In this document: positions 18,699 through 36,417 of the stretch, piece after piece | Position numbering within the stretch: position 1 is the first letter of the stretch | Layout: each line of letters starts with the position of its first letter | DNA from: a phage | Length of the DNA stretch: 64,000 bases | Sequence record: NC_103192.1 | Strand: one strand, 5' to 3' | Notes under the pieces: model-generated | The model's database searches: none | What the model saw: only the letters and a program-made list of their open reading frames with translations | Told to the model about the DNA's origin: nothing | Position numbers and translations under genes: made by a program

Positions 18699-18986
18699 TC
18701 ATAGTGCCTCTAAGATTTCATATCCTTCGGGTCGGAATACAAGCCACTCTGTGGCTCCGTTTGGTCGATACGCTTTATACAGAACAACCTGGTCTCGGCA
18801 CATGCACATGGCTACATAGTTTTCATCCACACCTGCAGCCTGCATTGCATCTTCTTCTCCGGCAACTGCTTTGCTTACAACTTCCTTGGTAGGCAGGTGT
18901 GCGATCAGCTCGTCACCATCATTAATTCCAAAATGGCTGAGTTCGCCGTTGGTATCTTTAATCTTAATCTTAACCAAATCTTTCAT
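18699..18986 (-). CDS. Small acidic protein, family A-like
   Basis: Abuts the next gene; acidic; MK.L.KIK start as in paralogs. Confidence 0.45.
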   Translation of the reverse strand: MKDLVKIKIKDTNGELSHFGINDGDELIAHLPTKEVVSKAVAGEEDAMQAAGVDENYVAMCMCRDQVVLYKAYRPNGATEWLVFRPEGYEILEAL

Positions 18987-29639: not shown

Positions 29640-29742
29640 ACTATCTCCTTCTCCTTGTCTTGTCCGGTAATAATATCTAAATCTTACCTGTTTGTCAACA
29701 ACTGTTTTAGATATCTAAGGGTGGAATAACCACCCTTCTGTA

Positions 29743-30531
29743 TTACTCGGAAACAGGGGTCCAAATATGATTTGCACGATCCTCAATAAGATTGAGTGCA
29801 ATCTGACGACCCAACCCGGAACGAACAACATCGTCTGGACTATCAAAGCTGATCATTCCAACCTCAGGATCTGGATGACGAGTAAAGAAATCCGTCACCC
29901 ATGCAAGGCCAGATTTACCAGGGATGTCACGTTGGCTATTATCGCCCATAATTACAAGGGTGGCCTGATCAGAGATCCTTGTGATAATTGACAACATTTC
30001 TTCAGGGTTAGTTTGCTGTGCCTCGTCAATCAGGACAAAGCATCGCTCATCGAAACTACGACCACGAATGCTTTCAACCTCACAAATCTCGATACGGCTG
30101 TTCTGACCGTCTCCCAGCATTGCGGCAAAAGCACCTTTGCCAACACGACGACAAATCGTGTCCATCATGCTTCGAAGATAGGGCCACAGTTTCTGCATTG
30201 CATTTCCAGGTTTAAATCCTGAAGTCTTTCCTGTCTGAACGTAAGGACGTGCAACAATGATCTTATCAATCTCGTTCTTACGCAGAAGATCACCTGCATA
30301 TGCAGATGCCATAAACGTCTTACCGGATCCAAACACACCGTTTACAATAATAATCTTACGTGACCCTAGATAATCAAGATACTTTTGCTGCTTTTTATTC
30401 ATTGGTCGGAGAGCTGGAGCGGTGTGCTCTCGTTCGTCAGCAAATTTCTCAGCAGCCTTACGCAGGCGATCAGATTTGCGAGCCTCTCTAGCTTCATCCC
30501 GCATGCGTTTTGTTTCTTTAGCTCGACCCAT
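29743..30531 (-). CDS. phoH: PhoH-like ATPase
   Basis: Walker A GVFGSGKT, Walker B-like VLIDEAQ, charged N-terminal extension. Confidence 0.75.
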   Translation of the reverse strand: MGRAKETKRMRDEAREARKSDRLRKAAEKFADEREHTAPALRPMNKKQQKYLDYLGSRKIIIVNGVFGSGKTFMASAYAGDLLRKNEIDKIIVARPYVQTGKTSGFKPGNAMQKLWPYLRSMMDTICRRVGKGAFAAMLGDGQNSRIEICEVESIRGRSFDERCFVLIDEAQQTNPEEMLSIITRISDQATLVIMGDNSQRDIPGKSGLAWVTDFFTRHPDPEVGMISFDSPDDVVRSGLGRQIALNLIEDRANHIWTPVSE

Positions 30532-31092: not shown

Positions 31093-31584
31093 TTAGTCAA
31101 CCTGAACCCAACCGCCTGCTACCTTTTTAAACATTCTTTGGTTATCACTGCCTCGGAATGGTTTCTTGGTTGGTAAATCTTTTACATACTTTCCATCAAT
31201 GACGATATCAGCCAGTTTAAGAACATCACTAGAGATATGCTCAAATGTGAACCCAGTATACACAAGAATAGTTTTCTTGTCACCAAACTTTTCCTTAATT
31301 CTCCTCATAAGGTTGATAATATCTGGCTCATTATAAGTAGCCAAAGGCTCTCCACCAAGTAAAGAAATACCGCATACAGATTCATTGTCTAAATCCAACA
31401 AAATTTTCTGCAAATCTTCTTCGGTGAACTCTCTTCCTTTATCTTTTGACCAAAATGCTTGATTAAAGCAACCAGGACAAGCGTGTGGGCACCCAGATAC
31501 CCACAAAGCTGTCCTAATACCTGGCCCCTCGGTGTAAGATATCTCTGTATACCCGACAATATTCATACATACTCCGCATCGCAT
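31093..31584 (-). CDS. nrdG: Anaerobic ribonucleotide reductase activating protein (radical SAM)
   Basis: Cys cluster CPHACPGC near N-terminus; size and position next to nrdD. Confidence 0.75.
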   Translation of the reverse strand: MRCGVCMNIVGYTEISYTEGPGIRTALWVSGCPHACPGCFNQAFWSKDKGREFTEEDLQKILLDLDNESVCGISLLGGEPLATYNEPDIINLMRRIKEKFGDKKTILVYTGFTFEHISSDVLKLADIVIDGKYVKDLPTKKPFRGSDNQRMFKKVAGGWVQVD

Positions 31585-31731
31585 TTAGGACAATGCCAAA
31601 TAAAATCGTCCAGTGCCTTACACCAACGAAGATTGCAATGACAACCACACTTGCAGATTTTATAGATACCCGATGACATACTGCACCTCCTTAGTTAATA
31701 GCATATTTAAAATATGCATATCTTTCTACGA

Positions 31732-32667
31732 TCATTTACCGCAGATCTCTTTATACGCTGCTTCCACTATGCTGAACACCTCAGGCCTGTAGTAGAAGAA
31801 TTCGGTGCTACCATTAAATTTTACAGGAAAGTTTATTTTACACTTGTTGAAAATCTCGTGCACAGATTTTTCTACACTTAGCATGTTTTTAGTCGATCCG
31901 CTCCATGTTTTCAATATATGTAAATCATGTAGACCCGCGCCAGATGTATGTGCGCTTTTTAATATCTCATCCTTTCTATTATCAACACGGACGCTCACAC
32001 CTATCTTCATGAGTGTAGGCAATTCTAGATCATCAACCATGATGTAAAGTTTACCACAATCGTGGGATAAAAATCCACTTTTGGTGCATTTAGGACATCC
32101 TCTCCCTCCTAAATGCTTGGTAGGGGATTGACAGAAATCTCCATGGTCTGTGCAAACAATTGTAACCTTGATGTGTGAATTCACATACCTAACTTTAGAG
32201 TAATCATACTTGTTCCCGTGGACAGCCACAGCGTCCTGGATAAACTCTTCAGTGGTCTTTTTCATAGATCCGCCACATCCTGGACAGCCGTGACCACGCT
32301 TAAGGCTACCAGGAGTAGCTGACCATTCGTGGTTGCAAACTTTGCAACGACATAATACTTTATTACACCCTGTAGTGATCTCTTCTAATATTTCAATATA
32401 AGTATTTTTCTTCCCTATGTCCTCAACCCACTTTTCATGAGGTTTGGTTTTACTTTGTGCTATTTTTAGCTTCCTGCATTCAGGACACCCGCATTTTTGA
32501 TTTAGATGTATATCAGGTGTTTGGGCAAAGTGGGTGCCGCAGTGCTTACATATTATCTCCACTTTATCTTTACAGGTTTTATAGTCCACAAGAGAGTAGT
32601 CGTATTTATCACCATGTTTCTCTCTAGCCCTCCCTATAAATTCCTCCGTTGTCAGTCGTCTGGTCAC
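31732..32667 (-). CDS. Free-standing homing-endonuclease-like protein (tandem Zn-ribbon modules, T5orf172/GIY-YIG-like C-terminus)
   Basis: Two repeats of TTEEFI...HG.KYDYS.V.Y...C..HG; C-terminal KLYIMVD...KIGVS block; inserted between nrdG and nrdD. Confidence 0.4.
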   Translation of the reverse strand: MTRRLTTEEFIGRAREKHGDKYDYSLVDYKTCKDKVEIICKHCGTHFAQTPDIHLNQKCGCPECRKLKIAQSKTKPHEKWVEDIGKKNTYIEILEEITTGCNKVLCRCKVCNHEWSATPGSLKRGHGCPGCGGSMKKTTEEFIQDAVAVHGNKYDYSKVRYVNSHIKVTIVCTDHGDFCQSPTKHLGGRGCPKCTKSGFLSHDCGKLYIMVDDLELPTLMKIGVSVRVDNRKDEILKSAHTSGAGLHDLHILKTWSGSTKNMLSVEKSVHEIFNKCKINFPVKFNGSTEFFYYRPEVFSIVEAAYKEICGK

Positions 32668-32734
32668 CGCTAAATCCTCTTGGTTGCTAATCTATGTACT
32701 AAGTGTGCCACATCCTTGTGGCTTTTGTCAAGTA

Positions 32735-33697
32735 TCAGCAACTACAACTTCCATAGTGCTTCACTCGCTCGATAACTTCCGCTTGCTTACCTGTGTTATA
32801 CGGCCTACTGTTCGGGCTGGAGAGATAGCCAGACACTCTTCGGATCACTGAGATATATTGTTCATCGTGGCATCCGCACGCAGGGCAGCAGAACCCTTTA
32901 GCTGTTGCACTGAACTCACCAGAGAAACCACACTTGAGACATTTATCCACAGGTTGGTTAATACCAAAATACATAATATGTTTATACCCGAAGTCAACAA
33001 GAGCCTCTAAAGCATCTAAGTTGTTTTTCAGATTTGGTGTCTCTATGTACCCAATGTTGCCACCAGAGGAGATCATAGCAAAACCTTCCTCATACTTCCA
33101 CTTATCAAAAGGTGAGCTATTGATCCATACTGGCTGGTGGAAACTGTTGGTGAGGTATTCATGCTCGTGCTTCAACACTTCAGGATATTCACGATCCAGG
33201 CAGGTTGCAGCCTTATAGCATAAACTCTCAGAAGGGGTGCCGTACAAGCTAAATGCTAGTCCACTTTCCTTCTTATATCGCTCACAAGCATCCTTCATGT
33301 GCTGAAGGATTCCAAGAGCTAAAGCCTTGTCACCCTCTCTGCCCAAAATCTGACAGGTTTCATACACACCAATATACCCAATACTGATGGAAGCGTACCC
33401 GTCATAGAAGAGTTTATCGATACTCTCTTCAGGATCCAGGCGAGCAAGAGCTCCTTCACACCACATGATAGGATTCTGCCCGGCCTTGGTGCCTTTCAGA
33501 CGGTTAACCCTTACAAGGTGAGATTCATATGCCAAATCCAGATACTCGTCAAGAACGGCAAAGAAATCAACACCTTCCGTCTTAGCTTTTGCCGCAATCA
33601 TTGGTAGGTTAAGGCTAACAACACCCAAGTTGAATCTGCCAAGGTATTTCTCCTCGCCTGTTACAGGGTCGCTATATTTCGATAAGAAACTTCTACA
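32735..33697 (-). CDS. nrdD: Anaerobic ribonucleotide reductase NrdD, exon 3 (glycyl radical domain)
   Basis: CRSFLS..NLGVVSLNLP and C-terminal RRVSGYL glycyl-radical motif plus Zn-ribbon cysteines align with E. coli NrdD C-terminus. Confidence 0.8.
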   Translation of the reverse strand, partial: CRSFLSKYSDPVTGEEKYLGRFNLGVVSLNLPMIAAKAKTEGVDFFAVLDEYLDLAYESHLVRVNRLKGTKAGQNPIMWCEGALARLDPEESIDKLFYDGYASISIGYIGVYETCQILGREGDKALALGILQHMKDACERYKKESGLAFSLYGTPSESLCYKAATCLDREYPEVLKHEHEYLTNSFHQPVWINSSPFDKWKYEEGFAMISSGGNIGYIETPNLKNNLDALEALVDFGYKHIMYFGINQPVDKCLKCGFSGEFSATAKGFCCPACGCHDEQYISVIRRVSGYLSSPNSRPYNTGKQAEVIERVKHYGSCSC

Positions 33698-34459
33698 CAT
33701 TATGTTCAAGGTGGTTCGCAAGGCCACCCCCGCACCTTTACGTGCTGCTGCATGTCCCCATGCAGATCAGACTATATCTTCACACTTAGTGTGTCTACCA
33801 TTTCGAGTGTCATCAGCTTACACCCTACACCGCTACATTCATCACGGTTAGTCGTTAGGCATTTCGTAACAGAACTCGTAATCATAGTTATTAGGTGCAC
33901 CACGTTTCAGGATAGCAGATATTCTTTTTCTATCTATTCCTAAAACATCAGCACAACATCTCAGACTCTTAAAGTGAATAACCACACCAGTTAATTTGTG
34001 GGTGGCTTTCACCCCGTGACATCTTGTGTAAAAAGCATAACAGTTGTTGTCGTATCCTTCTTGAGTATTGTCTGGGCAAGCTCCCCACTCAAGGTTGTAT
34101 ACGCTGTTATCTTTCCTGTTGTCACCTTTGTGCTTAACATATGGTAAATTGTCTGGATTTGGTAAAAACGCTTCAGCAACAAGTCTGTGAACCCTTAGGC
34201 AAACAGTCTTTTTGTTCTTGCGTATCCTGACAAGACGGTAACCTGTGTTTATCTCTTCCCACGAATGAATAATTCTTTCATTTTCGTATCGGGTGCAATA
34301 AACATTGCCCATCTCGTCAATTTCATAACCTTCAAAATCACGAATTTGTTTTCTCATTTCAGGACTCCTCTTAGTCAGGAGTTCTGTTACGTTTAGCACG
34401 GGATTGTCCGTTCTGGAGTTTCCCCGTTTAGATAGATTTTACATGAGCAGTTATAGTTT
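33698..34459 (-). mobile_element. Group I intron 2 in nrdD (contains HNH endonuclease ORF)
   Basis: Exon 2 ends ...SMG (codon ggt, terminal U), exon 3 resumes CRSF, restoring the conserved PMGCRSF block; 3' end carries AAGATATAGTC P7-like element and a P9 hairpin. Confidence 0.65.
33848..34399 (-). CDS. HNH homing endonuclease (intron-encoded)
   Basis: VKHKGDNRKDNSVYNLEWG HNH_3-type motif; N-terminal FEGYEIDEMGNVY module. Confidence 0.7.
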   Translation of the reverse strand: MLNVTELLTKRSPEMRKQIRDFEGYEIDEMGNVYCTRYENERIIHSWEEINTGYRLVRIRKNKKTVCLRVHRLVAEAFLPNPDNLPYVKHKGDNRKDNSVYNLEWGACPDNTQEGYDNNCYAFYTRCHGVKATHKLTGVVIHFKSLRCCADVLGIDRKRISAILKRGAPNNYDYEFCYEMPND

Positions 34460-34759
34460 ACCCATGCTTGTTACTTTGCCGTCTGTTGAACCTGTCACTT
34501 TTCTATTTAGCGGTACAGATACGAAGTCGGGATAAATCCGCTCTGCAGAGCATTCCAGAGCCAACCGTTTCAAATCATAGTTAGGATCCCCAGGATTCAT
34601 GTTGACACCCTCTTCTAGGAAGAACAGCACTTTAGGGAACACAGGTGTGATACGTTCTTCACCAAGACCCATTTTGTGGACTTTCAAGTAATTTTTGGTA
34701 ATCATTCTACCAAAGACCGAGGTATCCAGTCCTAAACTTAATGTGATGAATGGAGTCTG
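34460..34759 (-). CDS. nrdD: NrdD, exon 2
   Basis: QTPFITLSLGLDTS...ITPVFPKVLFFLEEGVNMNPGDPNYDLKRLALECSAERIYPD aligns with E. coli QTPFVTFGFGLGTS...AVFPKLVFAIRDGLNLKKGDPNYDIKQLALECASKRMYPD. Confidence 0.75.
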
Positions 34760-35556
34760 CTGTCTCCTCCCTGTGTTTCCACAGGGCCAGACTATCTCTT
34801 ACTCTACTTCAATAAGATAATAACCCTTTATTGTGAGATGCTTACCTTCGGCATTTCCTTCGATAGCCCTATGAACGTTACCTACGTTCAAATTTAAGGC
34901 TTTTGCACAGGCATAGAGTGAAGGATATTCACCAACCAAGGTTTTCCCTTTGTATGCCTGCACTTTCCTATAGCACTTACCTGGACAAAGTCCTGTTCGG
35001 AAAGCATGTCTCTTATTATCTTCCGGCAAAACCCACTCTAGGTTAGACGGATGATCATTCAATGTATTGCCATCTTTATGATTCACTTCCCAGTTTTCAG
35101 GGTCTTCTGGGACATCTGGCAAACAATACAAGGCAACAACCCTTGAGGTTTGGATTCGAATCTTTTTACCTTTGTGGTTGAAAGAGTACATATAACGGCG
35201 TTTAACATGCTTGTTACCTTTTCCATAACCTCCCCACAATATTGGGTGTAGCATTCCACGTTTTCCGTATACGTTTCCAACCTCATCAATCACATAGTTT
35301 GACTCTTCACCATTAAGAATGATCTTTTTCATAGAGCCTCTCCATTTCGAAGTTAGTATTTCAACTAACCCCTACACTACTTGGTTCAGAAATGTTTGTC
35401 AAGCATCTCTGCCTTTCGTTAGTCGTTACAACCGTTCCAACTCCTGTAAGAACTAGTCACGGGATTGGCGTAGCTTTCGCCTTAGCGTTCCCCGTTAGCC
35501 GGATTTACCGACCCCTCTTATGAGGTTAGGAGAGTTTTACAACGGCCAGTTTGTTA
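34760..35556 (-). mobile_element. Group I intron 1 in nrdD (contains HNH endonuclease ORF)
   Basis: Exon 1 ends ...SVNG then in-frame stop; exon 2 starts QTPF; intron 3' end has GAGATAGTCTGG plus hairpin; 5' part has GTTGTAACGACTAACG core-like element. Confidence 0.65.
34799..35332 (-). CDS. HNH homing endonuclease (intron-encoded)
   Basis: VNHKDGNTLNDHPSNLEWV HNH_3-type motif. Confidence 0.7.
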   Translation of the reverse strand: MKKIILNGEESNYVIDEVGNVYGKRGMLHPILWGGYGKGNKHVKRRYMYSFNHKGKKIRIQTSRVVALYCLPDVPEDPENWEVNHKDGNTLNDHPSNLEWVLPEDNKRHAFRTGLCPGKCYRKVQAYKGKTLVGEYPSLYACAKALNLNVGNVHRAIEGNAEGKHLTIKGYYLIEVE

Positions 35557-36417
35557 ACCGTTGACAGAAGTTAACGTATTGATTTGATAGAGCAAAGTCT
35601 GCATGCTGTCAAATACGTCTTTATCTGTCATTTGCATTGCAACAGTCTCAGCATCTGGCAACCAATGTTCCTGGCAAAATTTAAGGTTCTTCTCATAGGT
35701 CGCTTCAGCATACTGTGCCAGATAATGATCAATATGACTCATGGTCTGACCGCCATATTGAGCACTAGCTACTGCACTAGAGATTTGGCTAAGGATTGTT
35801 GTTGCAACCCCTATTGACTTCGGCTTACTGACATGGGCGTTACCAATGTTGAATCCGTTTTCCAACATATCTGGATAATTTACCAAACAACAGTTTGTTA
35901 ACGGACTGATCAAATAGTCAAGATCATGCACATGGATGAAGCCTTTGTTGTGCTCTTCGGAGACACGGTCTGGCAGGATCTGTGTTGATGCAAGGTGTTT
36001 GCTAAGGATGCCTGCAAGCAGGTCACGATGAGTATGCACATGATTAGTAGGCTTATTTGCGTTTTCTTTTGTAAATTCATCACAAGTACGATCCAAGAAG
36101 CCACTAATATCGGCAAGCAGTTTTCCACCTGCCTCTCTGTTATTATCTCTTGTCTGTCTATACTGGATGTATTCTCTGGCTGCACATTTTAAACCCATAT
36201 CCATAAGAGCATCTTCAACAAGGATATGGATATTTTTTACAGAGATCGTGCACTGGTCAGTTGGCAGATTGTTGGCAACAACTTCATTAACCGCACAGGC
36301 AATCCGGTAAGCTTCTTCTTCAGTATGTCCAGACTCAAGTAAGGCGGACTCTGCCGCCTTGATCACCTTAATTCCGTTATAGACCTCTTCTCTACCGTCC
36401 CGTTTTACAACTTTCAC
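35557..36417 (-). CDS. nrdD: NrdD, exon 1 (ATP-cone and N-terminal core)
   Basis: MKVVKRDGREEVYNGIKVIKAAE ATP-cone start; NENANK...RDLLAGI, HDLDY, PKSIGVAT blocks match E. coli NrdD. Confidence 0.8.

Follow-up and report, generated by a model that had tools for sequence, protein, structure and literature searches.

Among the nrd genes of this phage lies an ORF for which several roles may be considered: does it encode a component or regulator of the ribonucleotide reductase system, a weapon against competing genomes, or a homing endonuclease that has settled beside a conserved gene? The DNA analyzed here (the window, a stretch of 64,000 nucleotides) belongs to a Vequintavirus, an rV5/FV3-like myovirus of Escherichia coli, with the best overall match to "Campylobacter phage C2", which is classified as Vequintavirus FFH2 (95.7% identity). 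Many of the closest matches are MG0656xx records of this kind ("Campylobacter phage C2, A147, D1 ..."), all UNVERIFIED and assigned to Vequintavirus; they barely differ from E. coli phages, so that the Campylobacter host labels look doubtful. The ORF is complete, running from a GTG start to a TGA stop at 31732..32667 on the minus strand, exactly the extent given in the preliminary description of this DNA, and its product is 311 aa long.

All genes of the locus are on the minus strand and, read from high to low coordinates, follow the order nrdB, grx, nrdD, the 311-aa ORF, a 38-aa ORF, nrdG and phoH. The initial placement of the ORF between nrdG and nrdD is correct except for one small ORF: on one side it adjoins the last nrdD exon (nrdD stop codon at 32735), and on the other nrdG (31093..31584, minus strand) is not the immediate neighbor. 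The intervening cysteine-rich 38-aa ORF (MSSGIYKICKCGCHCNLRWCKALDDFIWHCPKCDAEYV; 31563..31679, minus strand) is conserved, has a GGAGG ribosome-binding site and overlaps the start of nrdG. Its counterparts in relatives are annotated as genes (navn_84 and the 38-aa genes of L010/L011), for which no Pfam match was found, and it might encode a small Zn-ribbon protein that partners NrdG or NrdD. The 311-aa ORF is free-standing, with its own ribosome-binding site, and alignments of the window with empty-site genomes show that it interrupts no reading frame. A good Shine-Dalgarno sequence, AAGAGGA, can be read off 7 nt 5' of the GTG start (32675..32681, minus strand), and a promoter scan predicted no sigma-70-like promoter between the nrdD stop and the GTG start, suggesting that the 311-aa ORF probably shares a transcript with nrdD and is expressed through nrdD read-through.

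The 311-aa protein consists of three Zn modules in the order A-B-A, followed by a C-terminal T5orf172 domain. Type A modules follow the pattern EEFI..HGDKYDYS..C-x2-C/H..C-x2-C, and type B modules the pattern HEE..NP.IE.L..KVLCRCK.C.HEW..GCP.C. The first module, A1 (residues 4-66; 32470..32658, minus strand), is DUF723-like and reads TTEEFI..HGDKYDYS..C-x2-C..C-x2-C; module B (residues 75-133; 32269..32445, minus strand) is DUF4379/CapR-like, reading HEKWV..N.YIEILEE..KVLCRCKVCNHEW..GCPGC; and A2 (residues 136-197; 32077..32262, minus strand) is the second KYDYS module, with the ligands C-x2-H..C-x2-C. The two KYDYS modules of about 60 aa that were noticed at first reading are real: the local alignment of A1 with A2 scored 133, compared with 26 +/- 5 for shuffled sequences (z = 20), and none of 2,000 shuffles reached 133. 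At the DNA level the two are just 52% identical, indicating an old duplication. That reading had overlooked the third Zn module, B, which is related to A1 at z = 5.3 in the same kind of shuffle test.

Pfam profiles give a graded picture of these modules. The best match of the whole protein was DUF4379, a probable treble-clef zinc finger (5.8e-12; 46.1 bits, cut-off 24.5), in two stretches, the better one at residues 95-133. Matches of DUF723 to A1 (15.1 versus 20.9 bits, E 0.022, residues 4-64) and of CapR to module B (19.5 versus 24.2 bits, E 0.0012, residues 86-132) were weak and remained below the respective cut-offs. Across 25 homologues, the A1 cysteines C40, C61 and C64 are invariant, as are C191 and C194 of A2, with C172 almost so. 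AlphaFold models A1 as a helix plus a beta-hairpin, with a pLDDT of about 90. The paired cysteines of a CapR module have been shown to be needed for DNA binding (Netter et al. 2021, PMC8096241).

The C-terminal block (residues 198-311; 31735..32076, minus strand) was initially described as T5orf172/GIY-YIG-like, and a nuclease domain is indeed present: Pfam T5orf172 (PF10544, GIY-YIG clan) matches residues 215-296 with 27.2 bits, above the cut-off of 20, and the related MUG113 profile gave 18.7 bits, below its cut-off of 22.3. The domain has the GIY-YIG alpha/beta fold that characterizes the T5orf172 family; the AlphaFold pLDDT is 87 for the full 311-aa protein and 94 for the C-terminal domain alone. 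It contains the strands LYIMV and MKIGVS, the latter holding the second GIY-YIG motif, which reads KIG rather than YIG, followed by R231, which begins the first helix past the two strands, and then by E266, H270 and E289, the last within a G-x-T-E-F-F motif (GSTEFF). When 25 or 36 homologues are aligned, conservation is highest in the nuclease domain, with Y208, K221, G223, R231, E266, H270 and E289 invariant together with the Zn-ligand cysteines.

Judged by motif order and secondary structure only, R231 and E289 would correspond to R27 and E75 of I-TevI, the Arg and Glu with which GIY-YIG enzymes catalyze cleavage; an hhalign comparison of the family alignment with the I-TevI catalytic domain gave no usable alignment. 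The canonical GIY-YIG family PF01541 gave no match at E <= 0.1, an NCBIfam search returned nothing relevant, and a sequence profile search of the PDB yielded DUF4379 proteins only and no solved T5orf172 structure. The protein shares the fold and superfamily of GIY-YIG enzymes but is not a member of the canonical PF01541 subfamily of I-TevI and the Seg proteins. It differs from these T4-type enzymes in layout as well, its nuclease being C-terminal rather than N-terminal and its DNA-binding part being an array of Zn modules of about 60 aa rather than a Zn-finger linker with a helix-turn-helix or NUMOD. A member of the T5orf172 family, the origin-directed nuclease Odn (Gp88) of vibriophage ICP1, has been proven to be a nuclease: it cuts DNA in vitro, and mutation of the conserved Glu (E180A) inactivates it (Barth et al. 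2021, PMC8263062).

Comparison with the alleles found at the same site in related phages gave dN/dS values of 0.10-0.24, in the nuclease and DNA-binding parts alike, indicating purifying selection on the protein. This bears on the idea that the gene product is a domesticated, CapR-like DNA-binding regulator with an inactive nuclease domain, one that, for example, tunes transcription of nrdD and nrdG. GIY-YIG homing endonucleases such as I-TevI repress their own expression, which counts toward such a role, as does the lack of a predicted promoter of the gene's own. CapR, the repressor of ICP1 capsid genes encoded by the satellite PLE, has a homologous Zn-finger DNA-binding module, the Pfam CapR profile matches module B weakly, and CapR-type modules are able to act as repressors (PMC8096241). 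CapR, however, has lost the nuclease domain, whereas the window protein is no Zn-finger module standing without one: it keeps a T5orf172 domain that is its most conserved part and is under purifying selection, and the invariant Arg, Glu and His residues argue, with the dN/dS values, against an inactive nuclease. The gene is, furthermore, missing from about three quarters of the close relatives (see below) and is hence dispensable for nrd expression. We regard the regulator as quite unlikely.

The architecture itself was first thought to be unusual, an impression that does not survive comparison with published data, because N-terminal repeats of Zn modules followed by T5orf172 are the standard layout of a very large family. 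Among T5orf172 homing endonucleases, 200 of 229 (87%) carry CapR, DUF723 or DUF4379 Zn-finger modules, often several, which have been described as "beads on a string" that shuffle between genes, and ribonucleotide reductase genes are present in 33% of the T5orf172 neighborhoods (Barth, Dunham & Seed 2023, PMC10448857). The window protein matches PHROG 681 "endonuclease" over residues 4-306 (6.3e-62); a large protein database contains 5,884 relatives at E <= 1e-10, and a 99%-identical NCBI protein is already named "GIY-YIG nuclease family protein". A tblastn search detected homologues in 1,107 phage records; their carriers include lambdoid phages (mEp021 among them), and some E. coli chromosomes have them as well. 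Foldseek searches against viral models gave 266 matches at E <= 0.001, with names including "T5 Orf172 DNA-binding domain-containing", "GIY-YIG nuclease family" and "CapR homology domain-containing". PHROG 681, Pfam T5orf172 and the nuclease fold thus agree with the original assignment of a free-standing endonuclease-like gene, and the protein counts as an ordinary representative of a large family that has already been described, not as a new architecture. Its proper label is T5orf172 (GIY-YIG superfamily) homing endonuclease, which has little import beyond annotation. No paralogue of the protein was found within the window, where the one match, of 19 aa and at chance level (18705-18761), falls within an unrelated 95-aa ORF.

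The closest described counterparts are gp165 and gp174 of ICP1 and their relatives, which have the same N-terminal Zn-module repeats and C-terminal T5orf172 domain (PMC10448857). Like the window gene, they are free-standing beside essential genes, shuffle their modules, gain or lose modules in frame, and sit at boundaries of genetic exchange. The window gene differs from them in its A-B-A string and in its host lineage, the Vequintavirus coliphages, a lineage absent from that study.

Whether the gene is mobile can be judged from genomes with and without it. Alignments (blastn) with the empty-site genomes FV3 and C2 place an insert of about 1 kb at 31697..32705, where FV3 has 18 bp and C2 has 22 bp instead, with clean alignment on both sides; by eye, the junctions are sharp at about 31728 and 32708. 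Apart from a microhomology of 3 nt (TGC), the junctions displayed no visible target-site duplication or terminal repeat. On the right-hand side, the insert abuts a hairpin, GCCACATCCTTGTGGC (32707..32722), just 3' of the nrdD stop, which is conserved whether or not the site is occupied and which marks the junction. Together with the following TTTTGTC, hairpin GCCACATCCTTGTGGC resembles an intrinsic terminator on the plus strand only, and the local genes are all on the minus strand.

A 511-bp empty-site probe taken from FV3 matched 119 records. Of these matches, 68 ran without a break across 80% or more of its length, others extended through the junction with a coverage of 76%, and all the remaining, interrupted ones broke exactly at probe position 247/266. 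A family member is present at the nrdD junction in about 26 Vequintavirus records, so that, among some 119 genomes, about a quarter of the sampled relatives are occupied and about three quarters are empty. Far from being a fixture of this position in all relatives, the gene is thus absent from most of the close ones, and the suggestion that its position is typical of homing endonuclease insertion was borne out.

The same genomes decide against a role of the protein in the anaerobic ribonucleotide reductase system, as accessory subunit or maturation factor, a role to which only the position next to nrdD and nrdG and the Cys richness of the Zn-ribbon modules point. Most relatives with intact nrdD and nrdG lack the gene, family members found elsewhere adjoin terminase, capsid, polymerase or phoH genes, and the protein has a nuclease fold; we consider this role highly improbable, the empty-site genomes effectively refuting it.

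Occupied genomes do not all carry the same gene. Mangalyan (gp119), WalterGehring (bas51_0186), navn (navn_83), SophiaRose (SophiaRose_117), ECML-10 and phiWec189 have an insertion junction identical to that of the window, and the proteins encoded there are members of one family, the identity of their nuclease domains being 58-76%. The WalterGehring gene is annotated as "putative homing endonuclease" and that of SophiaRose as "putative GIY-YIG nuclease family protein". Over its entire length, the window protein is 81% identical to that of Mangalyan and at most 53% identical to those of the other same-site alleles, and the module strings vary: A-A-B-A in Mangalyan, A-A-B in WalterGehring and navn/A147, A-B-B-B in ECML-10, A-A-A-A in SophiaRose, A-A-A in phiWec189 and A-B-A in the window. 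The window allele is collinear with the Mangalyan allele (86% nucleotide identity) except for the lack of one A module (65 codons, in frame), a difference of the kind of gain or loss reported for ICP1 gp174.

Evidence for recent movement comes from three other assemblies, L010-L012, which carry the same allele as the window. The cassette (31753-32752) is 99-100% identical to theirs in nucleotide sequence, whereas the flanks are only 82-91% (nrdG) and 71-82% (3' end of nrdD) identical, and these assemblies differ in their nrdD intron contents. The cassette being far closer than its flanks indicates that it was recently placed in different backgrounds or that the backgrounds were swapped around it, with break points at the borders of the cassette; ordinary recombination replacing the flanks could also have produced the high identity of the cassette relative to its surroundings. 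A comparison of the flanks of carriers (the window, L010-L012 and Mangalyan) with those of empty genomes revealed no consistent polymorphism common to the carriers and absent from the empty sites, so that no target or immunity site can be assigned to the window allele. Collectively, the pattern is what a functional, laterally moving homing endonuclease gene would be expected to leave, and the gene is probably mobile.

On the strength of these sequence comparisons, we consider it likely that the product of this free-standing gene is a homing endonuclease belonging to the T5orf172 branch of the GIY-YIG superfamily and acting as follows. The three Zn-ribbon modules, folded independently like beads on a string (A-B-A), would bind DNA and thereby position the C-terminal GIY-YIG-fold domain, which would cut by means of the conserved Arg231 and Glu289. 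During mixed infection, the genome of a related phage devoid of the gene would be cut somewhere in the nrdD-nrdG region, and recombinational repair would copy the cassette of about 1 kb into the intergenic site that directly follows nrdD, often with co-conversion of flanking markers. DNA cleavage, the target sequence, biased inheritance and protection of the phage's own genome are the parts of this scheme that we infer.

A nuclease of this kind might instead serve competition or defense in the manner of Odn, by cutting the genomes of co-infecting phages or satellites, with the spread of the gene as a by-product. Odn, an anti-satellite weapon, has the same catalytic nuclease domain as the window protein (PMC8263062), and homing endonuclease domains have been linked to phage-satellite conflicts (Barth et al., PMC10448857); the homologues noted above in lambdoid phages and E. 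coli chromosomes would also suit such a function. Yet Odn, a defense tool and not a homing cassette, owes its specificity for the satellite replication origin to a RepA_N DNA-binding domain and not to an array of Zn modules. Moreover, a fixed intergenic site that is common to many divergent alleles and lies beside a conserved essential gene, together with the presence/absence pattern and the incongruence between cassette and flanks, is as expected of a homing endonuclease gene. Defense as the primary function thus appears unlikely, although the defense and homing roles are not mutually exclusive.

The last nrdD exon of the window contains a recoded patch at 32793..32828 (minus strand), in the region of the glycyl-radical motif (RRVSGYLSSPNSRPYN) and 90-120 bp from the insert. 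Relative to C2, the patch has 13 substitutions in 36 nt, all but one of which are synonymous and which include the multi-step swaps AGT/TCC for Ser and AGG/CGT for Arg; the 150 nt beyond it are identical to C2. A search with the patch retrieved exactly 19 phage records, a set identical to the one with the navn-type allele at the junction. Only the window departs from this pairing, having the patch together with a Mangalyan-type allele. The patch is a candidate for a target-immunity scar of the navn-type enzyme, and its presence in the window would fit inheritance from a background with the navn-type gene, followed by turnover of the endonuclease gene. Tight physical linkage alone could, however, account for the association of the patch with the navn-type allele.

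From these observations a broader picture may tentatively be drawn, one that we hold to be possible rather than probable. The alleles at this site, at least 6 in number, would form a natural experiment in modular DNA recognition, in which each module string has its own target in nrdD or nrdG and the alleles displace one another, leaving behind synonymous immunity scars of which the 36-nt nrdD patch would be one; the window would then be a recombinant caught mid-act, with a navn-type scar and a Mangalyan-type allele. If true, sequence alone could reveal, for the first time, what a Zn-module T5orf172 homing endonuclease targets in nature. The alleles at the junction, a well-sampled series in which Zn modules are shuffled, are of modest value as material: with the empty sites of near-identical genomes as possible substrates and with a candidate immunity patch, target-site mapping and homing crosses are easy to design for a poorly characterized family of homing endonucleases.

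A second feature of the 3' end of nrdD was considered as a possible correlate of occupancy and rejected. The C-terminal Zn ribbon of NrdD (32847-32894) exists as two sharply different protein haplotypes, CCPACGCHDEQY versus VCPECGNHEEGT. The window, C2, navn and SophiaRose have the haplotype GFCCPACGCHDEQY, and FV3, Mangalyan, WalterGehring, ECML-10, phiWec189 and L010/L011 the haplotype GFVCPECGNHEEGT; both are found in occupied and in empty genomes, which rules out that the haplotypes track occupancy of the site.

The nrdD gene (32735..36417) is itself split by 2 introns of about 0.8 kb, with one HNH endonuclease ORF in each. With the intact NrdD of phiWec189 (707 aa) as a guide, the exons map to 36417..35558, 34760..34460 and about 33698..32735 on the minus strand. 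The intron ORFs (34799..35332 and 33848..34399) belong to HNH_3 and PHROG 59, and sub-threshold Rfam matches to group I introns were obtained at 34769..35056 (E 5e-4) and 33748..33982 (E 1e-5). Relatives have none, one or both of these introns. With the T5orf172 gene, the two HNH ORFs bring the number of mobile nuclease genes within 4.7 kb to three.

The divergence between the window and C2 is concentrated beside two homing endonuclease sites, and nrdG of the window is 81-90% identical to that of C2 and 96-100% identical to that of FV3. The second polymorphic T5orf172 site adjoins phoH and corresponds to 29709..30452 of the window, that is, to the 3' half of phoH and the sequence downstream. 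In C2, navn and L010-L012 it is occupied by a paralogue that has about 309 aa and shares 35% identity with the protein of the nrd site; the coordinates are 3779..4690 in L004 and 5973..6902 in L010. The site is empty in FV3 and in the window, which is FV3-like here: its phoH DNA is 97% identical to that of FV3, and its PhoH protein is 60% identical to that of C2.
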